This document shows, in pieces, positions 4,452 to 63,458 of a stretch of 64,000 nucleotides of DNA (its first letter is position 1; every line of letters starts with the position of its first letter). The DNA is taken from assembly GCA_024137785.1 (NCBI GenBank), contig JAHRHZ010000271.1:25404554-25468553 (forward strand). Reading direction: 5' to 3'. The stretch comes from Ginglymostoma cirratum (Eukaryota). The notes beneath the pieces are model-generated. The model was given only the letters and a program-made list of their open reading frames with translations. It was not told the origin of the DNA and searched no databases. A program made the translations under genes and the position numbers.

Positions 4452-4548
4452 TACCACTATGATACAATGGACATCAGTGACCTGCCCATTGAGTTTTCAG
4501 TGGTGTGGAATGGCAACTTCATCATTGACAATCCAGCAGACATCAAAG
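4452..4548 (+). CDS. PLXNA2: Plexin-A2 internal coding exon, phase 0-1
   Basis: tttcag|TAC...AAA G|gtataa. 97 nt: [32 protein letters not shown]. Frame not given in the ORF track. Confidence 0.94.
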
Positions 4549-6944: not shown

Positions 6945-7055
6945 TTCCTACTTCATCTAATTTAACTTCAACTTTAACTCACCATTCAACTTTGCTTTAA
7001 TTTTAACTTCATTCATATTTAATGCTAACTTTAACCTCAAAAGTTTGACTTGAAA
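6945..7055 (+). repeat. Degenerate hexamer (TTTAAC/TTCAAC) low-complexity tract
   Basis: tttaacttcaactttaactcaccattcaactttgctttaattttaacttc..aactttaacc. Confidence 0.6.
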
Positions 7056-7305
7056 TAAATACCGCTCCAATTTGAGTGAAGTGGCCAACTTTGCTCTCAG
7101 TGTAGGCCCTGCCTTGTGGTTCTTTGTCTTCTCTGAAGATGACATCAAGACACATGCTTCTCAAATGTTGGTGTCACTCCTGCAAAATCCTTTGTTCCAC
7201 TAAAATGTGTTCTGTTTCCGAAATGTCTCTGGCGCTCAGAACTCTGAATTGACCAAACCCTGATCGCAATATTCAATCCTAGCCTATGGAGTTAAATGTT
7301 TATAC

Positions 7306-7497
7306 AGTGTGGAGCTGGAGGAACACAGCAGGCCATGCAGCATCAGAGGAGCAGGAAAGTTGACGTTTTGGGTCAGTACCCTTCTTCAGAAAGAAGAAAT
7401 GTCAACTTTCCTGCTCCTCTAATGCTGCTTGCTATGTTGCTCCAGCTCCACACTGTGTTGTCTCTGACTCAAGCGTCTGCGGTTCTTGCTCTGTCCC
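7306..7497. mobile_element. Short palindromic PLE-derived insertion
   Basis: Two inverted copies of the PLE 3' end (gtgtggagctggaggaacacagc... / ...ctccagctccacactgtg). TSD AAATGTTTATAC at 7294-7305 and 7498-7509. Confidence 0.85.
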
Positions 7498-7579
7498 AAA
7501 TGTTTATACCGAGTCATAAACAGCCACATTCCATGCTTCATATAAGGTAATAGCTGTGCCAGTATGTCTAGCAAACCAC

Positions 7580-8920
7580 CATGACATCTCCCTTAATTGA
7601 TCAACATAGGAAATTGCATGGCACAGCACACAGGACAGGTCACAACATGATCTGGCTACAGTTTTAACCTTAGTCAGAGTTTAACCTAGCTTGACCAAAG
7701 TTCCCAGCATGCTTGATTATAACTTGTAACCATTTCTCCTGCTGGCCACCTGACCACAATTTCCTTCAATATCAGATACAGACTTTGGGAAGCAAACCTA
7801 AGAAATATAAATTTGAGCATGCTGTGCATAGATGGTGAAGCCAGTTCTGATTTGACCATGTCAAGCATTGTCTCATTCTCTTGCAAAATTACCAACTACT
7901 CTAGGATCCTCTAAAAGGATAAACGTAACCCAAAATACTTTATTTTCTCTGCAACCAAACACCACTTTTAACCTCTTTTTATTGAATGCACCTGCCTCTC
8001 CTTGAATATGAAGTGTGAGGAGCTTATGGACCTTCCATTTAGCTGTCATCATTCTTTATGACTCTTCCCTTTAATAGCCGTCCATAGACAAGGACAGGTT
8101 TCTACTTGTATCTTGGTGAAGCATACATCTTCCTCTGCATTATCATTATAGATCCATGCGCTTCTTCTGCGACATTCATGCTTGAGTGAATATAATTTTC
8201 TCCAGCTGAATGTAACTTTTTCCAGCTAAACATTAAAAGGACAGAAGCCGTTATATTTAGCCCCCCACCACAAATGCAGTATCTTTGCTACCTGACTAAT
8301 TTCAGCCTCTCTATCTGCTGCAGGGCTTAACCAGACTGCTTGCAACTTCAGTGTCCTGTTTTACCCTAATCTCATGTCTTCTCTACCTCTACTTGCCTCT
8401 ACTCCTTTTTCAGCCCAATATCCATTGCATGTATTGTTCATATTTTTGTTAATTACAGACTCAATTCTGCTAAGGTCCTCCTGGCCGATCTCATAGCCTC
8501 CCTCCTGTGAACGCATTAGATGATTCACACCCAGATTCTATCCTGCCAAAGACCCACTCTCAATCATCCTGGTCTTGCTGATGCACACTGCCCTTGCTGT
8601 GTTTAAATTTCTCCTTGGTTTCATCTCTCACTGTCTAATACAATGCCAACCCCACTTTCCCATGAATGCCTCATTCCTTTCAAGAAGCTCCTTGTATGAT
8701 ACCTCCTGCTTTCTTAATTTGTGGCTATGCTTCAGTGGTCTAGCTCCTTTACTCTGGAATTGCTTCACCATACTCTCTTCCACACCCCGCACACCTTTGT
8801 CTCTTGCTTCTCTTCAAAATCTGTTTTGGATTTTTGCTCACGTTTTCTTCGCCTTCTTTAGACCAGTGTCTCGTGATTCTTCATTATGCCTGTGTGATCC
8901 ACCTAGATTTTTTTAAGCAG
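7580..8920 (+). mobile_element. Highly degraded L2-like LINE
   Basis: Pyrimidine-rich plus strand with L2-like remnants (ccagactgcttgcaacttcagtgtcctgtt..; ttcagtggtctagctcctttactctggaattgc). Approximate boundaries. Confidence 0.45.
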
Positions 8921-9629
8921 TGAAACCAATGCATGAATGCAAATCATGGCTGCCAAAAGCTGTAGCCCATCACTGCATGTGCTGCCTTGAATTTTATTAA
9001 GTCACAGATTTCCATCGCAGTATTGGTTTATTGAGCAGACATAAAAAGTAAATACAATTGTGTTACAGATTGAATAAAAGCTTTTCTTAATTAATGAGGA
9101 AATGTGAGGGCTTAAGATGGATCTTAAAAGTTGTTAGTGCTGATAAAGTTTCAGAAATAAAGTGGCAGATGGTATCTGTAGCAAGAGTAATGATCTTAGC
9201 AGTATTTTTGTAAACCTTTTCCAATATCATAACATTTTTCTCAGCATGAAGGCAACACTCCCCATCTCTTCCCGCCTACATCAGTTGAACAGTGTCACTT
9301 CACCAGCATATCTTGATTGTTGCTCCTTCATGTCACCCATCTATTTCCGACATTGAAATAAAGTGAGCCCTTGCCTAAGTTTATTTATCACAAATCTTGC
9401 ATTCAAGGCAGAATAATGTATCAAATGCCTGGGACCCAATGTAAATATGGGCGTCTGGTAGCACTTGCTACAATGCAGAACACTTTCATGGAATGTTGGG
9501 AATTGTAATGAATTGTAAATGTGAGGTGTGAGGGGGGATGTTGAATGTTCTTCTTGAGCAGAGCCCCTAAGAATTCTTAATGCCATATCACAATTGAGCT
9601 GGAAACCTTTCCCTGCAATTCTGATTAGA

Positions 9630-10185
9630 ATTTTTTTTATTCATTCATGGGATGAGGGCGTCACTGACTAGGCAGCATTTATTGCCCATCCCTAATTGCC
9701 TAGAGGGCAGTTCAGAATCAACCATATTGCTGTGGGTCCGGACCCACATGTAGGCCAGACCAGGTAAGGATGGCAGTTTTCTTCCCTAAAGGACATTAGT
9801 GAACCAGATGGGTTCTTCCAACAATTGACAATGGATTCACGGCCATCATTAGACCCTTAATTCCAGATATTTATTGAGTTCAAATTCCACATCTGTCATG
9901 GTGGGATTTGAACCCAGGTCCCCAGAACATTATCTGGGTCAACAGAGATAACAAGCATGGGGCTGGATGAACACAGCAGGCCAAGCAGCATCACAGGAGC
10001 AGGAAAACTTGACGTTTCAGGCCTAAACCCTTAATCAGAAATGGGGGAGGGGAAGAGGGTTCTGAAATAAATAGGGAGAGAGGGGGAGGCGGATAGAGGA
10101 TGGATAGAGGAGAGGATAGGTGGAGAGGAGGCAGACATTATCTGGGTCTCTGGATTAACAGTCCAGTGATAATACCACTAGGTCA
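9630..10185 (-). mobile_element. tRNA-derived SINE, interrupted by a PLE fragment
   Basis: Minus strand has an A-box-like cctagtggtatt and B-box ggttcaaatccc head and an A-rich tail. Close copy at 24815-25141. Confidence 0.85.
9941..10134 (-). mobile_element. Single-arm PLE 3' fragment nested in a SINE
   Basis: Matches 44454-44620. TSD ACATTATCTGGGTC at 9927-9940 and 10135-10148 interrupts the host SINE. Confidence 0.88.
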
Positions 10186-20553: not shown

Positions 20554-21153
20554 AGATAACAAGCATGGGGCTGGATGAACACAGCAGGTCAAGCAGCATC
20601 ATAGGAGCAGGAAAACTTGACGTTTCGGGCCTAAACNNNNNNNNNNNNNNNNNNNNNNNNNNNNNNNNNNNNNNNNNNNNNNNNNNNNNNNNNNNNNNNN
20701 NNNNNNNNNNNNNNNNNNNNNNNNNNNNNNNNNNNNNNNNNNNNNNNNNNNNNNNNNNNNNNNNNNNNNNNNNNNNNNNNNNNNNNNNNNNNNNNNNNNN
20801 NNNNNNNNNNNNNNNNNNNNNNNNNNNNNNNNNNNNNNNNNNNNNNNNNNNNNNNNNNNNNNNNNNNNNNNNNNNNNNNNNNNNNNNNNNNNNNNNNNNN
20901 NNNNNNNNNNNNNNNNNNNNNNNNNNNNNNNNNNNNNNNNNNNNNNNNNNNNNNNNNNNNNNNNNNNNNNNNNNNNNNNNNNNNNNNNNNNNNNNNNNNN
21001 NNNNNNNNNNNNNNNNNNNNNNNNNNNNNNNNNNNNGTTTAGGCCCGAAACGTCAAGTTTTCCTGCTCCTATGATGCTGCTTGACCTGCTGTGTTCATCC
21101 AGCCCCATGCTTGTTATCTCGGATTCTCCAGCATCTGCAGTACCTTTTATCTC
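20554..21153. mobile_element. Palindromic PLE-derived insertion with its centre in a 400-N gap (20637-21036)
   Basis: The visible ~83-bp arms are exact reverse complements. TSD ATTTACAGTTTGTA at 20540-20553 and 21154-21167. Confidence 0.85.
20637..21036. other. Assembly gap (400 N)
   Basis: Run of N. Confidence 1.
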
Positions 21154-36048: not shown

Positions 36049-36166
36049 AATTGTGTGTGAAATGGGGGAGGCAAGGCCTCACAGAGAATCTGGTCCTGTG
36101 CAGCTCTGTGTTGGGGAGTGCAAGCCTGAATTTATGACAGAATCGTCGCAGCAGTATACCTTTGTG
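36049..36166 (+). CDS. PLXNA2: Plexin-A2 internal coding exon (IPT/TIG), phase 2-0
   Basis: tgacag|A ATT...TTT GTG|gtgagt. 118 nt: [39 protein letters not shown]. Confidence 0.95.
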
Positions 36167-38554: not shown

Positions 38555-38691
38555 AAGCCCTCACTGGAAGACCTGAAACCAAATCGAGGCCCAGAGTCTG
38601 GGGGAACAATGGTAACAATTACTGGAAGATATCTTGGAGCTGGCAGCAATGTCAATGTGTTGTTTGGGAATCAAACCTGCGAGTTTTACAG
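38555..38691 (+). CDS. PLXNA2: Plexin-A2 internal coding exon (IPT/TIG), phase 0-2
   Basis: gcgcag|AAG CCC...TAC AG|gtgagg. 137 nt: [45 protein letters not shown](R). Confidence 0.94.
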
Positions 38692-39439
38692 GTGAGGGTG
38701 ATGGTGGTGGGGAAGCTGTTAGGGTGATGATGTGCCAATTAATTTTCATTCCAGAAGCTGCAGGATTCTTCAGGTTGAGTTAGAACAGTTCTTGTGTTCT
38801 AAATATTAACGTTGATGAGTTGTTATCATGAATTCACACTAATACATTCTAAATCACTCAGAACAACTGTTTGACTATTACATCCACAAACCTCCGATAT
38901 CCTAGATTGATGGGAGATGAATGAATCACCAGGAAAATTCAAGGTCATATTTTTATTGGTGGGATTAGATATTAAAGAAAGTTATGGCGTAAACCTCAAG
39001 TTTTAATTGTCCTCAAGTGCGAGCTTTACATTGCATTTTTTTTTATTTTATGCCTATTGCAAATGTGGTGAAAAAGTTTGATATAATTAGTGAAAGAATA
39101 TCATTTATAACCAGCTAAAGGGAAGTAACAAAATTAATGCATAGAATAGGTACAAATTTCAAACATGAATCTTAAATGTGAAGACGTGAAGCCTCTCCAG
39201 TGCCCTGCTACTGTTGATTGAAATAACATTGATCCAACAGTAATCAGATATTTTTAATAACTTGCACAAATTTAACCCCGAACTGGATTGCCAGTACGAC
39301 TGGATTTCTTCCAGCTGTGCTGACTCTGTCGACGTTTTGCAATTAGCAAAGAGAAAGGGAACATTTAAACTTTCAAGTCTGCATGGGTTTGAATCCAGTA
39401 TTACAGCTAAGAAGATCCTGTGCTAACAGATGCAACCGG

Positions 39440-40155
39440 GAACTCACGAAGAGACACAGATCGATTCAGTGAGTTGGTTAAACTGCAGTCAATGGCAGTC
39501 AATATGGTGAATTGTAGCTCATCCAATTTCATTTCAAGGAAGACAAATTAGTGTGTTTTCTAAATGGTAAGAAACCAGAAACTGCAGGGGCACAAAGGTA
39601 TTTGGGTGTTGATGTACACAAATCACTAAAAGCTAAATGCTGGATTTTTTTTAAAAAAAATCAATCGCAAAGGCTAATGGAACATTGGCCTTTATCCAAA
39701 GGGGGCTAGAATGAAAGGGGTGTACAGAGCATAAATTCTTTGTTGTGTTCCTTTCACTTTTAGAAAATTGATAGATAATTTTTTGGAACAATACAGCGCA
39801 GAATAGGCCCTTCGGCCCTCGATGTTGCACCGACCTGTGAACTAATCTAAGCCCACCCCCTACACTATCCCATCATCATCCATAATCTGATAGAGATGTT
39901 TAATATAATAAAAGTATTTGATTGGGGAAGCTATTTCCTCTTGTAGGGAACTTAAGACCAAGAGGACATAATCTTAAAATTGTTCCAGACTATTCAGGAG
40001 TGAATTTACAAAATGCTTACTCAAGCAGAATGTTCTACAAATTTGCAATCTTCCTCTCTCAAAAGTCAGTGGAGGCTGGGTCAGTTGATGTATGTTAGAT
40101 TGGGTTTTTGAAGGTTATGGAATAACGCCATGTAAATGGGATTAGGCATGATCAA
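39440..40155 (+). mobile_element. Degraded CR1 fragments with a nested minus-strand CR1 tail (~39785-39885)
   Basis: ttgggtgttgatgtacacaaatcactaaaagct..aaaggctaatggaacattggcctttat..; nested gaacaatacagcgcagaataggcccttcggccctcgatgttg. Confidence 0.6.
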
Positions 40156-40171
40156 ATTGTGTGATGAATTG

Positions 40172-40409
40172 AGAACAAAAACAAAATTGCTGGAGAAGCT
40201 GAGCTGGTCTAGCAGCATCTGTGGAGGAGAAAACAGAGTTAACGTTTCGGGTCCGGTGACCCTTCCCCAGAACAGTTTTGAGGAAGGGTCGCCAGACCTG
40301 AAACGTTAACTCTGTTTTCTCCTCCACAGATGCTGCCAGACCTGCTGAGCTTTTCCAGCAACTTTGTTTTTGTTCCTGATTTACAGCATCCGCAGTTCTT
40401 TTGGTTTTT
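40172..40409. mobile_element. Short palindromic PLE-derived insertion (second family)
   Basis: ~100-bp inverted arms around cagaacagtt, each with a (mutated CTGAGGA)-AGGGTC..GACC-GAAACGTT hammerhead-like motif. TSD ATTGTGTGATGAATTG at 40156-40171 and 40410-40425. Confidence 0.88.
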
Positions 40410-41470
40410 ATTGTGTGATGAATTGGCTTGGGTGACTTGTTTCTCCTGTACCATGTATTGTCAAGCAAATAAACACAGAAGCTTAATATTCAGGGATAGC
40501 ACAGACTATACATTGAAGGTAATGGAGCAAATGAGTTTTCAAAAATTAAACCACTTGCTTTCTCATTGAAACAATAGCTGTAGTCTTCCCTGTTCCACAA
40601 TAAATTTTGAAGGCAGGACTGGGAGGAAAGTCAGATATATTACCATCAGGTAGAGGTTGGTAATCAGGTAAAGGTTGGGTAAGACTGGCAGAGATTGCCA
40701 ATCTGCAAAATTACTGCTTAATTGTGGACTGATTGGGACGATGACCAGGATCTTCCCAGTTCTGGGCAGGGGCCCCTCTCCCAATGAGGGCCAAGTGGAG
40801 CACATGTCTGGAAAAGGTGTGCTGCCAACTGTTACCCTCCCCACCTCTCTACGGCCTCCTACAATATTTCCCCTCCTCCACCGGCACCTCAGCAATGGCG
40901 TTGTGTACCCCGCCCCCACAAACACGTACACGCACGCGTCCACACGAGTCTGTTCTGACATTTTGTGGCCATCATTTATTTTATTAAACTGAAAACCTTT
41001 CACTGGGCTCCTCAAGGTGGAAGCACCCTTGTGATTCCCTGCCTACAATGGCAGCACCCATTGCTCCTGGTGGGGCTCTATCCATCCATGATATCAAACA
41101 ACATAATTAATGTCGTCTTTTCATTACAACAGTTAATTCATTTGGATTCCAGGGAGTTTAATCTAACTTAATTATATTTAAGGTATTGGTCAATGCTGTA
41201 TTTGAATGACAATTTTATTATTCTGTTTTTATTTCTGCCACATTTCAAATAAAACCCTTTCACAGAGTCAGATTTATGCCGAAGTAACCTGACAATTCCT
41301 TTATTGTGGTCAATGAAAGTCAATTAAGAAATGTGCAGTTTTAACCTGTGTATTTATTGAGGGAGTAGAGGTAATATCGTTAATAGATAAATCTGATTTT
41401 TTTTCCCAAAAAGGCTAAAAAATATGTAGACAATGACGGATGGCTTGTAGATAGTGAGATTGATATTTAT

Positions 41471-41909
41471 TAAGTCATAGACTTGCGCACCGAGCCATTT
41501 GGTGAGACACCAAGAGACACAACCGATTCTCACTGGTCTCAATACAAATGGACAAAGAAGGGCACGAATTTGACTGGGACAACACATCCAAAATCATACG
41601 AGCCAAACAGAGACATGTCAGGGAATTCCTGGAGGCCTGGCATCCCAACCAGAACTCCATCAATGAATACATTGAACTGGAACCCGATATATAAACCACT
41701 GAAAAACAAAATCAGAAGTGATGCCAATCACTCCAGTAAACAGAGGCATATAAATAACAAGCAGGACAGAAGACCAATGCTTCATTGGAGATGTACCGAT
41801 GATGTTTCCTAGCAGGGTGATGAAACGCCTGCAACCGAACGCACCGGCTCAGTGAGCAAGTCTACAATCTCCTCCACAACCCGAGCTACAAATCTTCTCA
41901 AAACCTAAT
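41471..41909 (+). mobile_element. Penelope/Poseidon-type PLE 3' fragment (GIY-YIG C-terminus and 3' repeat) with short inverted 5' end
   Basis: Decayed frame ..DKEGHEFDWDNTS..AKQRHVREFLEAWHPNQNSINEYIELEP.. Hammerhead-like C(C)GATGA..GAAACG at 41796-41829. Left end tagacttgcgcaccgagcc is inverted relative to ggctcagtgagcaagtcta. TSD TTGATATTTAT at 41460-41470 and 41910-41920. Confidence 0.8.
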
Positions 41910-42077
41910 TTGATATTTATCTTCTGAGCTTGATTGTTGTACTGCTTTATGTTTAACCCCTGCACTGTCAAACTAGTGCCATCTGTAAGCTTGAACTAAT
42001 TGACTCAGCACTTTAAATCCATTCTTAGATTTACATCATTGTTATGTAGCTTGAATATGGGGTCGAATAGTGTCCCT

Positions 42078-42205
42078 CATCTAAAGAAAGGTCATTAACA
42101 TGAACCTTAACTTACTTTCTTTCTCTGTAGATAGTCTGGTCTGAGGATTTCCATCAATTTTTGTTTACGTTTAAGATTTTTAGCATTTACATTGTTGCTT
42201 TTGTG
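42078..42205 (+). mobile_element. Highly decayed PLE 3' end
   Basis: ctaaagaaaggtcattaacatgaaccttaac..ttctctgtagat..ctgaggatttccatcaatttttgttt resembles the second-family tail. Confidence 0.45.
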
Positions 42206-44505
42206 TTGTAGCATTTGAGACAACATACAAGGCAAATACAGTATGTTTAAAAGTTGGAAATAATATTCAAATGTGTGAATCAGAATTTAACGTTGGACTT
42301 TGAGCATTGTGTGAGGTTAAATTTACTTTAATTTCTAAATTTAAATAGGTGTCTCTGTCTTTATTATATTTGATCACAACCCATTTATTTTAGAGCCCAA
42401 GGTACAAAAGTCTCTCCATTGCATGTTTGTAAAGTAAACCAAACAAAATGAATTAGACTAATTTCAATCCAGTCTCCTGACTGTATTATTAAAGAGAAAT
42501 TGAAAAAATGTATTCCAAGTTGACCATTTGATGGCTGGTTTCTCTTTCTGTGAATTTGAGATAAAGTAAGTTGCCTTGAAGAAATTCCAGTGGGAGTCCT
42601 GAAATGCATCCGTCTCCTTGCTTCAAAGAGCCAAAATATTATATTCCTCCACAACTAACCCTCACAGCTCAGTTTAAAAATGAAGCTTTTATCTTTTGAA
42701 GTAAGGTCTATATTTTCACCATTTTGCATGGGAGGACTTATCTTCCAGTGACTTCTTACAACCAACAGGGCTGCTTGATCTTGGAACTGCAGTTCCTTTG
42801 TTCCAAGTTCAAAACATCCTCAATGGCTATAGGGAATTGATCTTACGAACTGAGTCTTTAAAAAGCAGGTGGAAGGCACTGCACATGGCACTGGTGGTGA
42901 AACTGGCCAATGTTAGTGAGGTGTTTTAATTTATTTCTGTTACTCCACTAAGAGGACGGAAGCATGCTCTCTTGTCACTATGCTAGTGCTCAAGCTTCCT
43001 CAGAGGCAGTGTCAGCAGTTACACTCATGACTACCGAATTTTGAAGAAATTTCTCGCACTGTTGTGAAATAAGATCCTTGCTGTGTTTAGATAAGTTATC
43101 ATTTATTGTGTTAATTTGCTTTCAGATATTGGATTTTGTGGCTGTCAGCATTTTTACTGCGACAGCTACATTTCAGTGACAAAAAGACTGAGAATAGTCT
43201 CTTGAGAATTAAACAGGAACGTGTCATATGGCTGTAACCAAATCACATTATCTTGACGATATCAAAAATCATTGGAACTGATCGTATTGTTACTGAAACG
43301 TTGTGATTCGGTTATACACTTTAACTAGTTCCAGCGCAAAAAATGTGCTGTGTTCTTGGTTAAGATTGAAGAGTTTGCTGTCTTCAGTTTTCCAGTGTTA
43401 CTGCAGAACCCAGTGATATTTAAAGAATATTATTTTTTGACATTACAGGTAAATGTTTAGGTTGTAGAAATTCTAGGTATGGGATATACTGGAATGCAAT
43501 TCTAAAGCTGAATTAAAAAAAAGTCTACAAATTTATTATTCTATTTCTACTTCAAGCAATAGAAAATTGCAGACAGGTAACTTGCAGGTGATAATGGTTG
43601 ATAAATTTGCAAAGATTTAAATGACCCTTAAAGATATTCAGGAATTTGATGTTTTTATTGCTTGGTAATTGCAGAAGCAGCTTGAATGTGGAAGACATAA
43701 AGCGAGGGAAATTTAATTTGTTTGCAAAATGCAACATACCTTGGCCAGTGCTGATTCAGAACAAGAAGTGCCATGTGTCCTATGTGCAGCTATTGACTAA
43801 CGCAATATATTAAGGAAAGATTCAGTCTGTACACAGGCACAGAACAGTATGTTAGTCAATAAACTCCTAATATAGAACCGATCTGTATTCCATTAGAAAT
43901 AATGTGGTTTGATTTCTGGCTGAGCGCCGCAGGCTGGAAGAGTTTAATGAGATCCACACTAATTACAGCTTTCTATTTTCAATCTCCTCTGATGAACAGA
44001 GTTGAACAGAATAGAATTACATGAAAATAGTCCTGACAGGCTAATAATAATCTGAATAGCTAATTACTGAAGAATCCGGAGTACCTCAGACGGGTGGCAG
44101 TAGCACAAGATACAGTCTTTACTATAATATGTATCTGACCGTAATGCCATTTGGGTCGCCCGAGGCTTCCAGGATACCACAGCAGTTTTCCTGGAGTGTG
44201 TTCAATGCATTCCATACTTATTAATGTTCTTTCTCATATTCTACATTGGAAAACCCCTGCATCACAGTAATAGTCTTGGAACATAATAGACTATCACTGT
44301 GATAGTGCATTACATTAATGATTCCCTTTGCAGTGCTTATGACTGGGGTCTGCTTTCATTGAATGTAATAATTGCAGTTCTTATCGATCAGTATGCACTA
44401 CTCATCTCATGCAGTTGCAATTGCAGTATGTAAGCAAATGTCCAATTTATAAGAGATAACAAGGTGTGGAGCTGGATGAACACAGCAGGCCGAGCAGGAA
44501 ACCTT

Positions 44506-44533
44506 GACGTTTCGGGCCTAGACCCTTCTTCAG
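44506..44533 (-). ncRNA. Minimal type I hammerhead ribozyme motif in PLE terminal repeat (left arm)
   Basis: Reverse complement reads CTGAAGA-A-GGGTCTAGGCCC-GAAA-CGTC. Confidence 0.7.
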
Positions 44534-44869
44534 AAATGGGGGAGGGGAAGAGGGTTCTGAAATAAATAGGGAGAGAGGGGGAGGCGGATAGAGGAGAGGA
44601 TAGGTGGAGAGCAGGCAGACAAGTCAGAGGCAGGGATGGAGCCAGTAAAGGTGAGTGTAGGTGGGGGGATAGGGAGGAGATAGGTCAGTCCAGGGAGTAC
44701 GGACAGGTCAGGGGGGTGGGATGATGTCAGTAGATAGGAGATGGGGGTGGGGCTTGAGGTGGGAGGAGGGGACAGGTGAGAGGAAGAACAGATTAGGGAG
44801 GCGGGGATGAGCTGGACTGGTTTTGGGATACGGTTGGGGGAGGGGAGATTTTGAAGCTTGTGAAATCCA

Positions 44870-46065
44870 CATTGATACCATCGGGCTGCAGGATTCCCAG
44901 GCTGAATATGATTTGCTGTTCCTGCAGCCTTCGGGTGGCATCATTGTGGCATTGCAGGAGGCCCAGGATAGACATGTCATCTGAGGAATGGGAGGGGGAG
45001 TTGAAATGGTTCGTGACTGGGAGGTGCAGTTGTTTGTTGCGAACTGAGCGCAGGTGTTCTGCAAAGCAGTCCCCAAGCGTCCGCTTGGTTTCCCTGATGT
45101 AGAGGCGGCCATAACGGGTACAGCGGATGCAGTATACCACATTGGCAGATGTGCAGGTGAACATCTGCTTGATGTGGAAAGTTTTCTTGGGGCCTGGGAT
45201 TGGGGTGAGGGAGGAGGTGTGGGGGCAGGTGTAGCACTTCCTGCGGTTGCAGGGAAAAGTGCTGGGTGTGGTGGGGCTGGAGGGACAAGGGAGTCACGGA
45301 GGGAGTGGTCCCTCCAGAAAGCAGACAAGGGTGGGGAGGGAAAAATGTCTTTGGTGGTGGGGTCGGACTGCAGATGGCGGAAGTGTCGGAGGATGATGCG
45401 TTGTATACGGAGGTTGGTGGGGTGGTATGTGAGGATGAGGGGGATTCTTTTTTGGTTATTATTGCGGGGATGGGGTGTGAGGGATGAGTTGCGGGAAATG
45501 CGGGAGACACGGTTGAGGGCGTTCTCGACCACTGTGGGGGTGAAGTTGCGGTCCTTGAAGAATGAGGATATCTGAGATGTGCGGGAGTGGAATACCTCAT
45601 CCTGGGAGCAGATGTGGCGGATGCGAAGGAATTGGGAATAGGGGATGGCATTTTTGCAGGAAGTTGGTGGGAGGAGGTGTATTCCAGGTAGCTGTGGGAG
45701 TCAGTGGGCTTGAAATGGACATCGGTTTCTAGGTTACCTGAGATGGAGACAGAGAGGTCCAGGAAGGAGAGAGAAGTGTTGGAGATGGTCCAGGTGAACT
45801 TCAGGTTGGGGTGGAAGGTCTTGGTGAAGTGGATGAACTGTTCGAGCTCCTCGTGGGAGCACGAGGCGGCGCCCATACAGTCATCAATGTAACAGAGGAA
45901 GAGGTGGGGTTTAGAGCCAGTGTAGGTACGGAAGAGGGATTGTTCCACGTAACCTACAAAGAGGCAGGCATAGCTTGGGCCCCTGTGGGTACCCATGGCC
46001 ACCCCCTTTGTCTGTAGGAAGTGGGAGAAATTGAAAGAGAAGTTGTTGAGGGTGAGGACGAGTTC
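44870..46065 (-). pseudogene. PLE reverse transcriptase (C-terminal half) plus GIY-YIG endonuclease, frameshifted
   Basis: ELVLTLNNFSFN..QTKGVAMGT..GPSYACLFVG..YIDD..FHPNLKFT..FLD..KPTDSHSYL (RT and thumb), then VVYCIRCTRYGRLYIRETKR..EH (GIY-YIG). Spread over three reading frames. Confidence 0.9.
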
Positions 46066-46640
46066 CACCCCACCAACCTCCGGATCCAACGCATCATCCT
46101 CCGACACTTCCGCCATCTGCAATCCGACCCCACCACCAAAGACATTTTTCCCTCCCCACCCTTGTCTGCTTTCCGGAGGGACCACTCCCTCCGTGACTCC
46201 CTTGTCCCTCCAGCCCCACCACACCCGGCACTTTTCCCTGCGACCGCAGGAAGTGCTACACCTGCCCCCTCACCCCAATCCCAGGCCCCAAGAAGACTTT
46301 CCACATCAAGCAGATGCTCACCTGCACATCTGCCAATGTGGTATACTGCATCCGCTGTACCCGTTGTGGCCTCCTCTACATTGGGGAAACCAAGCGGAGG
46401 CTTGGGGACCGCTTTGCAGAACACCTGCGCTCAGTTCGCAACAAACAACTGCACCTCCCAGTCGCAAACCATTTCAACTCCCCCTCCCATTCCTCAGACG
46501 ACATGTCCATCCTTGGCCTCCTGCAATGCCACAATGATGCCACCCGAAGGCTACAGGAACAGCAAATCATATTCAGCCTGGGAACCCAGCAGCCCAATGG
46601 TATCAATGTGGATTTCACAAGCTTCAAAATCTCCCCTCCC
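46066..46640 (+). pseudogene. PLE linker plus GIY-YIG endonuclease (second, inverted copy)
   Basis: HPTNLRIQRIILRHFRHLQSDPTTKDIFPSPPLSAFRRDHSLRDSLV, a frameshift, then TCTSANVVYCIRCTRCGLLYIGETKRRLGDRFAEH...LGTQQPNGINVDF. The CxxC between the GIY-like and YIG motifs is typical of Neptune-type PLEs. Confidence 0.9.
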
Positions 46641-46944
46641 CCAACCGCATCCCAAAACCAGCCCAGCTCGTCCCCGCCTCCCTGTCGTGTTCTTCCTCTC
46701 ACCTATCCCCTCCTCCCACCCCCATCTCCTATCTACTAACCTCATCCCGCCCCCTTGACCTGTCCGTCCTCCCTGGACTGACCTATCTCCTCCCTACCCC
46801 CCACCTACAATCACCTTTACTGGCTCCATCCCCGCCTCTTTGACTTGTCTGCCTGCTCTCCACCTATCCTCTCCTCTATCCATCTTCTATCTGCCTCCAT
46901 TTCTCTCCCTCTTTATTTCGGAACCCTCTTCCCCTCCCCCATTT

Positions 46945-46972
46945 CTGAAGAAGGGTCTCGGCCCGAAACGTC
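46945..46972 (+). ncRNA. Minimal type I hammerhead ribozyme motif in PLE terminal repeat
   Basis: CTGAAGA-A-GGGTCTCGGCCC-GAAA-CGTC: CUGANGA and GAAA core boxes, GC-rich stem II, palindromic ACGT stem III, GUC cleavage triplet. Stem I is weak. Confidence 0.7.
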
Positions 46973-47794
46973 AAGGTTTCCTGCTCCTATGATGCTGCTT
47001 GGCCTGCTGTGTTCATCCAGCTCCACACCTTGTTATCTCGGATTCTCCAGCATCTGCAGTCCAATTTATAAGCTGTGGGAATTCTTTTTTGATGTGCAAT
47101 AAGAGTGGGAGAATGCCAATATTTTATTCTGGAGTCTTGATACCAACTTCTGAAAGTTTTGCGCAATTAACATGAAATTGACCTCAGCAATTTACAAGTT
47201 AATTTTTTTGAAATTCCTCAAAACAACTTGATGGAAGAATTAAAGAGACAGGCTGATGTAGCAATGAAATATCATGTGCATTCTGTATTCACCAAACATA
47301 CTGATCAATGTTAGGGAGATTGAATTGTACAGGATAAAAAATGTAAATGAGAATATAAGATTGTGCATTATTTTGCATGTGTATATAATATATATGGGAG
47401 GGGAAATTTACTTTTAAGATTAGCATTTATGTGCAGTGAACTGTGTCAGAATGTTGCCAGAATTTTTTTTTTATTTATATAAGATTCACAATGCAATCTG
47501 TGTGTTTGAGATTTGCTTTGTGAAAGTGCCATTTTACTGCAACATATCTAGATCACAGCAAGTGAAGAGGATGCTAAGTAGCATTCATACTTCTGCTATA
47601 CTCGTTAATTCAATGCTATTACAATGACACGGCTGTTCCTTAAAGCTTTTCTCTGTCCAGTTGATGCAGTTAGGAGCTTTCATCTCAATAAGGAGGCTTC
47701 TACATGTTTATATAAAGTCAGTTATGCACGTGAGCTTAAGGGTAAATGGGTGATTGATATTGAATGATAAATTATCTTGAGACCATATTGGGGG

Positions 47795-47972
47795 TCTTTT
47801 GGTGCTGTGAAAGTGTCCCTACATATGCTTAGGAGACCTGATTTCAAGTCCCACATGCTCCAGAGGTGTATAATAACAGGTTGATTAGAAAATATCTCTT
47901 TGAGAACATTTCGGGTCTTGAGGTACAGTGGTAGTATCCTTCCCTCTGACTCATGGGGCCTGGGTTCAAGTG
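47795..47972 (+). mobile_element. Two tandem tRNA-derived SINE heads
   Basis: ggtgctgtgaaagtgtccctac..ctgatttcaagtccc and ggtacagtggtagtatccttccctctg..ctgggttcaagt (A-box/B-box-like). Confidence 0.5.
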
Positions 47973-49010
47973 TGTTATATAAAAAGAAATGAAAATGGGA
48001 CTGGGGATAAGAGTGAGGAAGCTGGAATCTTTAAAACTACATCTGGAGAATAAAACTACTTTCCGGGGGTGGGAGAGCGCAGGAGAGTTTTCAGCTGGGT
48101 TTGGATCCATTTAATAGTCTGTGACAAATTTCACCACACCAGCTGTGAGACTACCAGTGACACTCCTAAAACAATCAAAATATTCTAAATAAAACAAACC
48201 ATACCAATCTTAAAACTCGACTCAACCTACCTCCCAATGTTGACAGGTCCTTTAAACCTTTCAGAATCCAGATTTAGTTCCACATTTTCATTGAAAATGA
48301 ATTGCTTATTTCTTAGACCATAACTTGTATACAAATTTTGTTTAAATCTGTCTATTTAGTTGTTGAAAGGTATTGTTTACGGACAAACGGAGGCAAAAAT
48401 ATTACCTTCGTGCACCTTCAGTGTAGGGGCTCATGAGCTATTCAGGAGGATCTTCCAGTATTTGAATTTGCAAGAATGATCAAATCATGCAAACTGATTT
48501 AGACTTGGGTATTCCAGATTCCAGATTAGATGAAATAATACTGGAAAAAAATTACTTTTTAATAAATTGTTACTCTAATTATGCAAATGTCTTAGTTGCA
48601 GATCACTTAATATGCACCAACATAGGAAGTTAGCATTAATTATAAAAGGTCAAGAAAAATGCATTGCACTGTTGAATGGGCATAATTTTTTATCAGTATG
48701 TTAATGCTAAGAACAGTCAGAGTCCTAAAATAATGTCAAGCATTTGACTTTCAGCATTTAAAAGTACAAAAATGTTAGTAATAGCATCTGTTAGAATATG
48801 CAGGTTATCAACAGTAGGTGAAAATCTATATAATCATCCTGTAGTTACTTGGCATGGTTGCATTCTTAGATCTGAGCAACAAATCCTGTACTCTTTGATA
48901 TTGAAAAGAAGCATGTCCACATTTCTTTCAAAACTGCAACATTGGGTAGTGCTAGAGACAGATTACGTTATATTTTTGAATTAACAATTTTCCCACTATT
49001 TTCTTTAAAG

Positions 49011-49178
49011 GAGGTCTCTGTCTGAAGTTGTTTGCGTCTCTGCTCCATCTCTTCATGGTACTGGGCCTGTGCGAGTTTCAGTGAGTGTTGATCGTGCTCA
49101 GATGGAGGATAGCTTGTACTTTGAATTTATTGATGATCCCACTGTCCTGCGGATTGAACCGGAATGGAGTATTGCCAG
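49011..49178 (+). CDS. PLXNA2: Plexin-A2 internal coding exon (IPT/TIG), phase 2-2
   Basis: tttaaag|G AGG...GCC AG|gtacca. 168 nt: [55 protein letters not shown](S). Confidence 0.94.
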
Positions 49179-57057: not shown

Positions 57058-57655
57058 GAGATAAAAGGTACTGCAGATGCTGGAGAATCCGAGATAACAA
57101 AGTGTGGAGCTGGATGAACACAGCAGGCCAAGCAGCATCATAGGNNNNNNNNNNNNNNNNNNNNNNNNNNNNNNNNNNNNNNNNNNNNNNNNNNNNNNNN
57201 NNNNNNNNNNNNNNNNNNNNNNNNNNNNNNNNNNNNNNNNNNNNNNNNNNNNNNNNNNNNNNNNNNNNNNNNNNNNNNNNNNNNNNNNNNNNNNNNNNNN
57301 NNNNNNNNNNNNNNNNNNNNNNNNNNNNNNNNNNNNNNNNNNNNNNNNNNNNNNNNNNNNNNNNNNNNNNNNNNNNNNNNNNNNNNNNNNNNNNNNNNNN
57401 NNNNNNNNNNNNNNNNNNNNNNNNNNNNNNNNNNNNNNNNNNNNNNNNNNNNNNNNNNNNNNNNNNNNNNNNNNNNNNNNNNNNNNNNNNNNNNNNNNNN
57501 NNNNNNNNNNNNNNNNNNNNNNNNNNNNNNNNNNNNNNNNNNNNGGGCCTAGACCCTTCATCAGATGAAGGGTCTAGGCCCGAAACGTCAAGCTTTCCTG
57601 CTCCTATGATGCTGCTTGGCCTGCTGTGTTCACCCAGCTCCACGCCTTGTTATCT
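57058..57655. mobile_element. Palindromic PLE-derived insertion containing a 400-N gap (57145-57544)
   Basis: Inverted arms with visible centre gggcctagacccttcatcagatgaagggtctaggccc. TSD CAGT(A/G)GTTTTTCTCA at 57043-57057 and 57656-57670. Confidence 0.85.
57145..57544. other. Assembly gap (400 N)
   Basis: Run of N. Confidence 1.
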
Positions 57656-58718
57656 CAGTGGTTTTTCTCAAATTGGCCAATTCATGGTCAGAGAATGTGT
57701 TCAGTGTTCACTGTCCACTGTGTGGACGCTCAAAACAGTGACCTCTTGTTACAGATGGTGCTTCCATCTTGATGTGCCCTCTTCTCAGTTCTAAAACATG
57801 CAAATTTAAAAAGCTGTTGTGGAAGGCTGCCTCACTTCAGGGGAATTGTGGGAGAGGTGGACTAAGTCATCCCAGCCAATTGGTTTACTTTGGCATGCGT
57901 GTTGCCCTAATTTGCTCCATACCACATGCAGTCAGATACCACTTCTGCCCCAGTCCCCCCTCCAGAAAATACTTTAGGGTTGGCATGGTGCTTCTATGCT
58001 GCCCCATGGCTCCATGTTGCTTACTCAATAGTCTCTAATAATAGAACAAAGAATCTGCCTATTGTTATGTTTATTTCAGTTGCTTCGATAAAATAAGCAA
58101 CTTGTATGATTCCTATCTGATAGTGAGTTCTTCAGAAACATTGGAAAAATGTTTGAATAAAGTCATGAGGATTTTTTAATAACTGTAGTTTATGCATTTG
58201 CATAATTAGATTTTGGGCTGTGTGGGCACGGTGCTGAATTTAAGACACCTGAACCACATACAGGATGGGCAGCACTGCTGTTGCTGAGAGAAGGTTTAAC
58301 ACCGATCTCAATGTTTTAATAAACAGAATAAGTCATTCACCAGATTTCTAATGTTGACGACAGGGTTTATCCCATGGGCTACGAGTCTTTTAGTTGAAAC
58401 AGCTACCTTCCCATTGAAGTTTTAGACAACTGGCGATGAAGAGCTGGAGTAGCTTTTACTATTTACATAGAGAGCCCATGAAAGTGGCAGAATAGTGCTC
58501 TTTGATGTGATTTCTATCCTGCCTTTCTAAAATGACAAATAGACAAACTTTCTTTGTGAAGATTGTGCCTCTTTGAAGATGACAGAATTACTATTATATT
58601 TTATCACCATTTGTTATGAGGCTATGAAAACTATAAATTATTTATCGACATATTTATTAACAGTCAAACATTTTCAATATTTATATTTTAAAAATCTCTG
58701 CTCTTTGTCATACTTCAG

Positions 58719-58812: not shown

Positions 58813-58919
58813 GTAAGTCATGGATTGATGTAAACTGTTTCTGTTTGATACAGAATTACATTCATGCACCAAGTCCTGGTTTGTGTGTTCAATGGTGTAA
58901 CAGTGCTGCTGAATCACAG

Positions 58920-59860
58920 ACACCTGCCATTCCACCAGCATTCACGCCCAGAGAGCCATTAGCCACCACTTCCGCTATCTCCAGCAGGATGCCACCACCA
59001 GACACACATTCCCTTCACCTCCCTTGTCAGCTGTGTGCAAAGACCATTCCCTCTGGGACACCCTGGTCTACTCTACTTCCACTCCCAACAGCCCCATGGC
59101 ACCTTCCCCTGCAACTGCAGAAGGGTAACACCTGCCCACTTACTTCCTCCCCCCTTCATATCTGAGGGCTCAAACATACCTTCCAGGTGAAGCAGCACTT
59201 TATCTGCACTTCACTCAATCTAGAGTACTGCATTCACTGCTCACGATGTGATCTCCTCTCTATTGGGGAAGCAAAGTGTAGACTGGGTGACCATTTTGCA
59301 GAACACTGACATTCTGTCTGCAAAAAAGACCTTTAATTTCCAGTTGTCTGCCAGTTCAACACACCACCTGGTTGCCTAGCCAGCATCTCTCTCTCTCAGA
59401 CTTGCTGCGGTACTCCAGCGAACCTCAGTGCAAGTTGGAAGAATTGCACCTTATTTTCTGCTTGGGAACCCTACAACCTTCGGGACTCAATATCAAATTC
59501 AACAATTTTAGGGTTTGAGGCACCTTCTCCCATGTTCTTACCCCAATCCCCACATACCAGGTCTTGTTATCACATGGTCTGTTATTACACACAACCCATT
59601 GTTAGCCATTAATAGTCCCCATTGGTAGCTATTCATTCCTCTATCCAATTGTTTTTCTGTCTCTCTGGGATCTAACTCCACATGTTGTTTGCTTCTTACC
59701 CTCTAACCCCAACCTATCTTTTGCATAAAAAACAATGTTTTCCTATCCAGGATTTGTTCTGAGGAAGGGTCACTGGACCCAAAATATTAACTCTGATTTC
59801 TCTCCTCAGATGCTGCCAGACCTGCTGAGCTTTTCCAACAAATTCTGTTTCTGTTTTTGA
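58920..59860 (+). mobile_element. Older Neptune-type PLE 3' portion (linker, GIY-YIG, 3' UTR, second-family tail)
   Basis: HSTSIHAQRAISHHFRYLQQDATTRHTFPSPPLSA, HGTFPCNCRR and YCIHCSRCDLLSIGEAK are homologous to 46066-46640. Ends in CTGAGGAAGGGTCACTGGACCC tail as at 40278-40375. Confidence 0.85.
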
Positions 59861-60639
59861 TTGATAGTTGCATCGTTTCAATCTCACATAGTTCCTCACT
59901 TGATTGTAGCATATTGAGGAAGATTTTCAATTAAGTTGATTGTGAAGTGCTGACAGGTTAGGATAAGAATTTTCTTTGAGGTATAGACATTAGCCTAGGC
60001 TTTGGAATGAGAAAATCTCCTGCAGTAGAGGATGTCCACCACAAGAATAATCCACCTTCTCCCTCCTGCTGCGAACGCCACTGACTGGAGAATGGGGTTG
60101 GAGGTTGTGAAATTGCACCTTTTGAGTATCTGCCATAGTAAGTTGGAGGAACTGGCTCAGCCATCTGCCTGGCTGTGTACATCCACCAGTTACATTAATG
60201 GTGATTTCCACTGGTGGCAGGAGCGTTCGCACTGATGCCAGTCTTTCCTCTGAGTTTGGCCATCTTCCTTCTATTAACGTGTCAGCTTGTCCAGTAAAAG
60301 TGATCTGGCTTGGTGGATGCTCTTTTGCCTGGTTGTGGACAGATATGGGGCGACAAAACATAATGGGCAGGGTGAAACTGACAGGACAGAGATGGGAACA
60401 AAAGCAAAATTCCGCAGATGGTGAAAATCTGAACTAAATAATACTCTTCAAAATACAAGGTTTCATCAGAATACTGCAGCATGATTTTGTCCAAACAGCC
60501 AACCAGAATTTGTATTAATGTTTTGCATAACCTAGTAAGTATTATAAGGCATAATGGATGTTTGGAGCCATTATTTATTGCTTACTGTCATAAATAATAT
60601 AAATGTAGAGGAGCATAAGAAGCAGTATTTTAAATATTC

Positions 60640-60873
60640 AGAGATAACAGGAACTGCAGATGCTGGAGAATCTGAGATAACAAGGTGCAGAGCTGGATGA
60701 ACACTGCAGGCCAAGCAGCATCAGAGGAGCAGGAAGGCTGATGTTTCAGGCCTGAGCAGCATCAGAGGAGCAGGAAGGCTGAAGTTTCGGGCCTAGACCC
60801 TTCTGTCAGCCTTCCTGCTCCTCTGACGCTGTTTGGCCTGCTGTGTTCATCCAGCTCTGCACCTTGTTATCTC
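60640..60873. mobile_element. Short palindromic PLE-derived insertion with internal ~41-bp tandem duplication
   Basis: Inverted arms (aaggtgcagagctggatgaacac / gtgttcatccagctctgcacctt). TSD ATTTTAAATATTC at 60627-60639 and 60874-60886. Confidence 0.87.
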
Positions 60874-61794
60874 ATTTTAAATATTCCGTTCCACAGTAAT
60901 CCTTAAATCCAGTCAAAAAACAATAAGCTGCAATTTCAGGATGATGCACTGCAGCAATGTGGAATGCAGAAAAGTTAATGCATTTTGTGCAAAATCCTCA
61001 GCTTTTAGATTCACACAGAGAGGGTTAATGGAATTTCTTTATCTCCTTAATGGTGTTTAATGGAAGATTAACTTTAGACAAAAGAGCCTTTGTCAGCATA
61101 AAGAGAAATGAAACTCAGGATGAGAGAAAGAGAAATCTATGTAGATTTAATTTTGTATTTTATCTTTGGTCATTCTTTAATTAAGTAAATTAGCTATTTC
61201 CTCTCTGTAAAAAAAAAACTCGTGGGAGTTTGCTTGACTCTGGTGAATTGACCGTATGGAATTTCAATTCAATATCTGGAATGTTCAGTTTTGCTTCAGC
61301 TCACAGGATCTCATTTGTGGAGTGTACTCATGCTAGGAAATTTAGTTCAAATTAACTTTCCCTAGAGGAAAAGTGAAATGAAAAATAAAGCTTACTGTAC
61401 ATCAAACTATATTTTGGGTACATCCTTGTAGCCTGTAAGGATATTGATTTTCTTTAATATAGAAAGGAAAGGTATCACTGCAGTGTTTTGAAGACTAGAG
61501 GGAACATAGCATTGATCTGGTGTGTTCACGTAATTTGCAGCACAGTTTAGTTCCTATGTCTTATTATAAAACACAATCAATATGTGAGCACCATTTACAG
61601 AATTTATAGGCAGAATCCTATGCCATCCTCTGTGGGTTTGATAGTGGATGGGGGTGGGGAAGTGTTCAATTGAGTGGGAGTGTGGTGAGTGAGGACCCCA
61701 CAGCCTTTTGCTCCTACCTCCCACACCCCCGATGCCAGGGGTGAGGTGAGGGGAGAGCTCCTGGGTGATCTTACTACCCTGCCACCTTTTTCTT

Positions 61795-61895: not shown

Positions 61896-62029
61896 TATAG
61901 AGGCATTTTACCTATTGAGGCATTTAAGTGAACAATGAAGAAGCTCATCCAGCCAGCAAAGGGATTTAGCCCAGAGGTGAGTGGGTGACTCACCGGTTGG
62001 GAAGCCCAACAAACAAACCCAGTGGTGTG

Positions 62030-62219
62030 ATAACACGATATGGAGCTAGAGGAGCAGTAAAATTGATGTTTCGGGTCAGGACCCTTCTTTTTCTGAAGAA
62101 GGGTCCAGACCCGAAACATCAACTTTCCTGCTCCTCTGATGCTGCCTGGCCTGCTGTGTTCCTCCAGCTCCATACTGTGTTAACTCTGATTCTAGCATTT
62201 GCAGTTCTAACTGTCCCGT
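62030..62219. mobile_element. Short palindromic PLE-derived insertion
   Basis: Inverted arms around acccttctttttctgaagaagggt. Hammerhead-like CTGAAGA-AGGGTCCAGACCC-GAAA-CATC at 62093-62120. TSD AACCCAGTGGTGTG at 62016-62029 and 62220-62233. Confidence 0.85.
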
Positions 62220-63458
62220 AACCCAGTGGTGTGTTAGCTTGTGGGCTCTCATGTTGGGGGGAGGTGCGTTTACTTTCAGAGGCACTCAGTGATTGAGGAA
62301 TGCAGAATGGGGGAGGGGCGAACCAGCGGCTGGACTCTCTTTCACCTCCCATCACCAGTAGCCTGCGTTCCCTCCTCAATCTGAGACCTCAAGTGGGTAT
62401 GATACTGGCATCAGCCACCCCTACCCTTCTGGCACTGATGAATCCAAAAGATTGGCCAGCAGCTCTCAGTGCATGAGAGTTCCACTGTGGGTAATGGTCA
62501 CTTACTGTGAGTGGCCAGTTAATGGCACGCTGAGACAGGTGGACTCTGAAAGCTGAGGGGGTCATTTGGATGCCTTCCAGCTCAAAAGTTGCAGCAGGAT
62601 GCTGTGAGGTAAATGGGGCTAAGGGTACTTGGAAATGTTGGAGTCCCCTTCTCCAACTTCTTGAAAATCCCAATACAAAATCGCTGCCACTGTGCAGGGT
62701 GGGCCTCTAAGCCTAGTTAGAGTACCAGTTTGGTGACTGCCTCCAGGCAATCAGGGAACTTGCAGGCCAATGGGGAAAGCCCACTTCAATTTGTCTGAAG
62801 TAACTCTATAGAGATGCACCCACTCAAACCCTCTGTGACCCCTCCCCCTGAAAAATGGCCTGGGACAGGTTGGAAGTGTAAAATTGATACGTTGACTTGG
62901 GTTACTATTTTGAGCACCTACCCATCACTGATCTAGGCCCTAGTGGAGGTTGAAAATCCTGCCCAAACTCCTTGATGTTTTAGACTTTGGTTTTATTTTG
63001 CATTCTGTGTAAAAGGTATCTTGCTGATAGGTGAGATGATTGCTAATCTTGAAAATAGCTTGCTCTGCAAAAAAAGCTCGCAGGAAATGTCAGTGGTGCT
63101 GCAGAGTGAATCGCCAAGATATATGTCTCTACAATTTGTAGGCATAATTGCTATACTGTTAATTATTATTACTTACAGTACAGTGACTATTTTTCTATTA
63201 CATTCACTATGAATAGAGCTGTATGACTCTCTTTTAGAATATTAGTGACTTTTGAGGGCTACCAGTTTTCAAATAGCTCTGAAGTAATTCCAAAAGTAAT
63301 GAGTGTAAGCATTTTGCTTTGCTTTAATGTATATATTTCTTACAACATTATGTATTTGACATTGATGAAAAGTTCAGGTTATAAAGTAGAATGTTCCAAA
63401 TTTTGGAAGTGTAAGCAATATTTCAAAACTTAAATTTTGCTTTTTGGTTCTGCGCCAG

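Follow-up and report, generated by a model that had tools for sequence, protein, structure and literature searches.

The window analyzed here is a 64-kb stretch (64,000 nucleotides) of the genome of the shark Ginglymostoma cirratum that contains nine exons of the plexin-A2 gene (PLXNA2) on the plus strand, as placed by a tblastn exon map with the shark plexin-A2 proteins P0001, P0002, and P0004. The last of these exons is 98% identical to bamboo-shark plexin-A2 and has Plexin-A2 as its best PDB match. One window exon has a slightly higher PDB score for A4 than for A2, which is overridden by the whole-protein map, and the plexin paralogues sit on other contigs, with first-exon identities of 63% and 59%. 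Exons at 38555-38692 and 49012-49178 (+) border the intron 38693-49011 (+), which is a real intron with PLXNA2 exons on either side on the same strand. The exon at 36050-36166 is missing in the relative's protein model P0001 and present in P0002 and P0004, reflecting either an annotation difference or a skipped exon. For plexin-A2 residues ~448-693, tblastn finds no exons in the ~67 kb that lie upstream of the window, from window position 38 back to the second coding exon; since part of that stretch reads N, a gap or misassembly is more probable than exon loss.

The intron hosts a single head-to-head unit of 2.6 kb (44454-47058) between two copies of the same 14-nt target-site duplication (TSD) at 44440-44453 and 47059-47072 (+). 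In a related shark, a 3,376-nt contig (data set X14) joins 44439 straight to 47059 with one copy of the 14-mer, and its flanks differ from this genome at 72 positions in about 1,840 nt. X14 alone gave such a contig; none bridges the site in the three other data sets compared. Judged from these sequences, the insertion is young and lineage-specific and is without signs of host use.

Both arms of the insertion are 5′-truncated, frameshifted copies of a Penelope-like element (PLE). The left arm (44454-46065, −), delimited by sequence comparison, comprises reverse transcriptase (RT) motifs, a linker Zn-finger, a GIY-YIG region, a 3′ UTR/pLTR, and a hammerhead, and it terminates at the short RT-start end with the tail absent. 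The right arm (46065-47058, +), delimited by arm alignment, holds the linker, GIY-YIG region, 3′ UTR/pLTR, hammerhead, and a partial tail. The arms overlap by 1 nt at 46065 and are 90.7% alike over 1,001 nt with gaps counted. The unpaired middle of the unit is an RT fragment, of which 45742-46065 (−) matches PF00078 with E = 9.7e-4, and a relative of 95% identity (L078) does so with E = 2.9e-6, both below the curated cut-off. A GIY-YIG domain lies at 46338-46571 (+) with a PF01541 score of 26.7 bits against a cut-off of 22.6 (E = 6.8e-6). In the left arm and L078, RT is followed by a C-terminal GIY-YIG endonuclease in one frame, as in endonuclease-bearing (EN+) PLEs. A PDB search with a relative's ORF gave no useful match.

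The clade of the element is indicated by the linker that separates RT from EN. A CX2-5CxxC linker marks Neptune/Nematis and is absent from Penelope/Poseidon, according to the accessible part of PMC8557442; translation of 46239-46265 (+) yields a CX4CxxC Zn-finger-like motif of the Neptune/Nematis type defined there, which is also found in relatives of the element, and translation of 46197-46739 contains a further feature by which the same source defines EN+ PLEs. The presence of this Zn-finger speaks against the Penelope/Poseidon clade, and the linker motif suggests the label of a Neptune-type Penelope-like retrotransposon. The C-terminal GIY-YIG with CCHH is likewise shared with the EN+ PLEs described in the parts of PMC8557442 and PMC3846280 consulted. 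A non-LTR retrozyme, made of non-coding head-to-tail repeats with a hammerhead in each, is ruled out by the coding remnants and the head-to-head arms.

The layout of the unit recurs throughout the family. Positions within copies are counted from C3 of CUGA. In 840 kb of readable sequence, drawn from a 464-kb neighbourhood and 76 arbitrary stretches (34 all N), family 3′ ends are bimodal at about +95 and +128, ~33 nt apart, which corresponds to a family tail of about 33 nt. The right arm alone carries part of this tail (47040-47058, +; loose ends at 47039 and 47060), which stops early at a 2-nt match to the target. A head-to-head partner lies within 4.5 kb of 60/106 sampled copies, and a short-end arm is joined to a tailed arm in 29 of 32 listed pairs, some of which reuse an arm. 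A full-length relative (L168) consists, in order, of an inverted arm, a tail, an ATG about 40 nt on, the ORF, and a 3′ hammerhead with tail. Together these copies present the EN+ PLE layout: a pLTR that precedes the ORF and recurs at the 3′ end (L168), an inverted truncated copy, a one-sided tail, and a TSD. PLE insertions typically include a truncated copy in inverted orientation and a tail on one side, and the units described in the accessible portions of PMC8557442 and PMC3846280 have head-to-head arms, a one-sided tail of 30-40 bp, and a short TSD, as here; unlike those units, this one has two truncated, frameshifted arms and no full pLTR-ORF-pLTR.

Each arm ends in a hammerhead. The first-pass annotation had reported intact CUGAAGA-A-stem II-GAAA-CGUC cores at 46945-46972 (+) and 44506-44533 (−), and both are present exactly so. 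The right-arm motif (46942-46975, +) is a minimal type-I hammerhead with a predicted cut 3′ of 46972, a 3-bp stem I (UUU/AAG, one G-U), a 4-bp stem II, and a palindromic ACGU stem III. The left-arm motif (44503-44536, −; core 44533-44506) also has a 3-bp stem I and is antisense in the PLXNA2 pre-mRNA. As first proposed, the right-arm copy is a sense copy that is transcribed within this pre-mRNA. The both-strand pattern of cores is real and is explained simply as the two arms of one inverted insertion.

The earlier description of these motifs as minimal, dimer-type PLE hammerheads (min-HHRs) holds, in that they have the conserved core, the base between 9 and 10.1, the G10.1-C11.1 pair, and the palindromic stem III. 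The min-HHRs of metazoan PLEs described in the accessible text of Cervera & De la Pena 2014 (PMC4209133) share with them the type-I core, the single base between 9 and 10.1, G10.1-C11.1, palindromic 15.2-16.2, a short stem I, the pLTR location, mostly truncated copies, and opposite-strand pairs. Stem II has 4-5 bp here versus 7-8 bp in Schistosoma min-HHRs, and stem I has 3 bp. Fishes, coelacanth, frog, and reptiles are among the hosts that this text names, and sharks are not. The Rfam hammerhead search suggested in the first-pass annotation came out empty, with 0 matches at gathering score in the 64-kb window and no hammerhead at E ≤ 10 in 44400-47100; the minimal motifs fall below its models.

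Amniote genomes contain intronic hammerheads that are conserved, canonical monomers. The trait in common with these (PMC6765202, in the part consulted) is the sense-strand intronic core; the shark locus, by comparison, is lineage-specific, repetitive, minimal, and by prediction masked. A host-conserved intronic hammerhead is ruled out by the empty site in the related shark, by a free monomer whose minimum-energy fold lacks the hammerhead (z = 0.24), and by the lack of an Rfam match.

The motif is abundant in the genome. Of 60 arbitrary genome stretches, 31 could be read and 29 consisted entirely of N; the readable 299 kb contain 22 strict cores whose stem II is paired, and GAAACGUC is present in 11 of these. 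In 20 dinucleotide shuffles, the counts are 0-1 strict cores and none with GAAACGUC. Cores with GAAACGUC have a density of about 37 per Mb, which, provided that unread sequence resembles the sample, extrapolates to the order of 10^5 for the genome of 4.36 Gb. This exceeds the 4,000-9,000 given for coelacanth and Xenopus, obtained with another descriptor, in the accessible text of PMC4209133. Knowledge of this motif class dates from 2014, and the locus is an ordinary one, with some 10^5 others like it in the genome. In the gene span, 9 ends of family A are sense and 12 are antisense, which shows no strand bias.

Variant cores listed in the first-pass annotation all exist in the window, and most have lost a catalytic base. 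G12A removes one at 492 (family B) and 59759, as does G8U at 10011-10038 (−), A6G at 40241-40270 (−), C3U with a GUU triplet at 40278-40307 (+), and U4A at 57562 (+), whose minus partner runs into a 400-N gap. The core at 41796 carries U4C and U16.1C and belongs to a separate, Poseidon-like family. The copy at 62093 is the only one to keep every catalytic base, with its stem III palindrome decayed at CpG, and an additional copy missed at first lies at 7362-7389 (−) with G12A. Fold-back insertions of 200-260 nt made of ribozyme and tail only, each with a target duplication, occur at 60620-60900, 61980-62240, and 7260-7520; 60707-60794 contains an internal duplication. Both 400-N runs of the window (20554-21141 and 57070-57656 region) are centred in a family-A fold-back, and the assembly may break at family-A hairpins because both runs sit at fold-back centres.

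Other hammerhead-bearing families are present as well. A second PLE type at 41506-41900 (+) bears an endonuclease end whose motif suggests a Poseidon-like element, with its own degenerate hammerhead at 41796; its family has 5,284 candidate genome sites, a stem I that differs, and a stem II of 6 bp. Family B (58913-59860 +, 40173-40375, 492) is a third, older family with 76-82% identity between copies, a GUU cut triplet, and a 5-bp stem II; of its members, 40173-40375 forms a fold-back of 100 bp and has a target duplication of its own. Two more families occur in the neighbourhood with 1-3 copies each, and one of them has CAC/GUG as stem I and a stem III of the AGCU type.

Conservation of the fold was assessed with 134 strict motifs (A1 77, A2 18, B 13, C 11, and 15 others or unassigned), whose loci were partly enriched by searches and whose descriptor places no requirement on stem I pairing. 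The first pair of stem I is U-A in A1 (76/77), A2 (18/18), and B (10/13 paired) and A-U in C (11/11). The second pair is U-A, U-G, or C-G across families, the third is U-G versus G-C with only 4/18 A2 motifs paired, and a fourth pair is not maintained. Stem III is ACGU in families A, B, and C except for CpG decay. The bulge A is kept in 77/77 A1 motifs and GAAACGUC in 64/77, the remainder being mostly CpG decay. A six-family permutation test gives 12/720, with a set that includes families of 1-2 copies, and is given no weight. Covariation is thus two-sided in stem I; the three stem II examples of the first-pass annotation do remain paired, but they differ only by a one-sided change from U-A to U-G and in the loop. 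The hammerhead fold was kept by the mobile elements and not by the host, because stem I covaries between three element families.

Within copies, catalytic non-CpG sites are off majority at 10/585 versus 122/3,915 elsewhere (Fisher P = 0.065) among 59 core-spanning copies that are biased to intact cores, and CpG sites of these copies are off majority at 5/35 catalytic versus 25/153 other positions; positions with a majority below 75%, including G12 in subfamily A2, were left out. The counts are not significant and lean away from strict neutrality, such that weak post-insertion selection is possible and none is clear. The two arms have in common two rare substitutions and a 13-nt deletion that other copies seldom carry (0-2 of 17 per column), and because of these shared changes they are assigned to one source lineage. 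Their identity is 95.2%, compared with a median of 94.1% between unrelated copies; since the arms have diverged as much as unrelated copies, their pairing has not been preserved.

The predicted fold of the pre-mRNA strand is dominated by pairing between the arms. The right arm pairs with the left at 918 of 975 bases, in 19 helices of 20-95 bp, and 33 of the 34 bases of 46942-46975 are included, as expected from the earlier suggestion that the antisense arm masks the core. Equilibrium energies, in which kinetics and proteins are ignored, are −120 kcal/mol for the local duplex that the core forms with the antisense arm, versus −8.4 kcal/mol for a one-site dimer; a monomer constrained to the hammerhead reaches −2.6 kcal/mol, compared with −8.8 kcal/mol for its competing fold. 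In a head-to-head unit, read-through from either side reaches the antisense arm earlier than the sense ribozyme, and masking would therefore be built in. The sense core likely does not cut the PLXNA2 intron, as modeled from these energies. Three points count against a silent core: opening of the duplex by ADAR or a helicase, or RNA begun inside the right arm, would free it; the catalytic-site counts lean as described; and among nine Xenopus dimers, one showed very good cleavage in vitro (bioRxiv 10.64898/2026.07.22.740005, in the part available). On balance, the two cores are very probably terminal-repeat motifs of one young, 5′-truncated, head-to-head PLE insertion, with a sense core that is predicted to be masked and likely inactive in intron cutting.

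The same predicted pairing raises the prospect that the ~1-kb double-stranded stem, and not catalysis, affects the host RNA through A-to-I editing, a splicing change, or circularisation of adjacent exons. The extent of the helices speaks for such an effect, and the fact that fold-backs of this kind are the norm in this genome speaks against it; back-splicing is not favoured because the whole stem is intronic and the closest exon is about 2 kb away. An effect of this type is rather unlikely.

Insights into the role of the motif in the element come from the 5′ ends of copies. A readable 5′ junction is available for 75 family-A copies (31/106 were dropped for N or an edge), counting both arms of each fold-back, so that copies are not fully independent. 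Of these ends, 29 fall at −6 to 0 (16 of them at −3), none at −56 to −7, 21 at +1 to +24, and 2 at the cut site, +28, both from one tandem locus. Family B (n = 78) has 36 ends at −7 to 0, 7 at −56 to −8, 22 at +1 to +26, and 5 at +27 to +33, and 2 family-C copies were sampled. This 5′ wall is based on the sample from this genome and on joints at 44532-44536 in other contig data. Splicing as its origin is rejected, with no AG at −3 and unrelated upstream sequences, and AT-microhomology alone is an unlikely cause, as the AT-richer stretch at −35 to −27 has no pile-up. Cut RNA as the main template is rejected by the scarcity of family-A ends at +28 (2/75) and by a family-B count in +27 to +33 (5/78) that is per position no higher than in +1 to +26.

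In long copies of families A and B (29 A and 19 B loci), position −4 is invariably an A, set in an initiator-like (Inr) context, and a TATA-like box lies 29-31 nt upstream, as compared with the general Inr and TATA consensus. Putative promoters can accordingly be delineated in both arms: 44537-44568 (−) in the left, with the Inr-like A at 44537 and the TATA-like box at 44562-44568, and 46910-46941 (+) in the right, with a TATA-like box at 46910-46916 that is one base off the family majority and the Inr-like A at 46941. A sigma-70 promoter scan gave no matches, and that consensus is irrelevant to a vertebrate host. Since 5′ ends cluster ahead of CUGA rather than at the cut site, the element's own RNA likely opens with the ribozyme as its first ~35 nt, and the inserted form is likely the uncut RNA. 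TATA and Inr motifs have been noted in rotifer pLTRs (PMC3846280, in the part consulted). In the open-access main texts searched, no publication was found that places a PLE hammerhead at the transcription start.

A mechanism compatible with these observations has precedent in the lizard Anolis. Transcription would start at the A at −4, and the ribozyme, probably within the first ~35 nt of RNA from the element promoter, would need dimerisation or the element protein in order to act. This protein would nick both DNA strands 14 nt apart, and two cDNAs would be primed, one per RT start site, on uncut RNA from one source locus. RT begun at the 5′ tail would run off the uncut RNA end, giving many copies of 100-130 nt. 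For the Anolis Poseidon element PAc, the accessible part of Frangieh et al. 2024 (PMC11167929) reports two-strand nicking, two RT start sites that delimit the tail, an AT-rich target, and, in vitro, a hammerhead that needs the element protein and uncut RNA as the insertion template, with reads never ending at the cut site. Here, likewise, two RT start sites delimit the tail, the target is AT-rich, and uncut RNA is the probable template. PAc differs in belonging to the Penelope/Poseidon clade and in having a ribozyme that overlaps the start codon, whereas L168 has about 170 nt between its ribozyme and the first ATG downstream. On the same contig, about 206 kb past the window start (neighbourhood 405979-406236), a single locus holds a small tandem array of ~106-nt units whose starts coincide exactly with the predicted cut site and whose ends lie just beyond the tail, as might be left by cut, circularised RNA.

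The putative promoters also allow a reading in which outward transcripts of both arms start with an unmasked hammerhead and can pair in trans with RNA from other copies, the left-arm RNA being antisense to PLXNA2. The Inr-like A and TATA-like box before each core, intact in the left arm, and the 5′ wall at that position in two families are in line with it, as are reports of pLTR promoters (PMC3846280 and PMC6765202, in the parts consulted). The TATA-like box of the right arm is altered, however, and solitary truncated copies are usually silent, with a tandem arrangement reported as necessary for expression in the accessible text of PMC6765202, all of which makes this reading improbable.

The weakest proposal is that of the first-pass annotation, in which a dimer of the sense core and a second sense copy would cleave the PLXNA2 intron at a rate of consequence, the fold-back serving as a tunable mask. 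The core, stem II, and palindromic stem III are all intact at 46945-46972, sense copies at 57562 and 62093 lie 10-15 kb downstream, and a mutated copy may still serve as the substrate strand of a hammerhead dimer. Against this, the intron 38693-49011 holds a single intact sense core, the other window sense copies are mutated or lie within their own fold-backs (40278, 57562, and 62093 each do), stem I is only 3 bp with one G-U, the predicted mask precedes the core in transcription and greatly exceeds a dimer in stability, the insertion is missing in the relative and shows no strand bias in the gene, and min-HHR monomers are inactive and dimers weak (PMC4209133, in the part consulted), so that dimer cleavage of this intron is highly improbable.

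For the preferred reading, that of a masked terminal-repeat motif, the consequences concern the element more than the host gene. The Neptune-type shark hammerhead might, as a tentative proposal that could well prove wrong, form the first ~35 nt of a capped RNA and act as a dimer- or protein-triggered self-decapping switch with built-in masking in host read-through. Self-decapping would then take abundant element RNA out of the translation and insertion pathway, and fold-back masking in both orientations would let the genome tolerate ~10^5 intronic ribozymes. The sharp 5′ wall maps the likely element RNA start from genome sequence alone and points to uncut RNA as what gets inserted, in agreement with the lizard element in vitro (PMC11167929, in the part consulted). 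If the ribozyme is indeed a self-decapping switch, the purpose of PLE hammerheads becomes directly testable.
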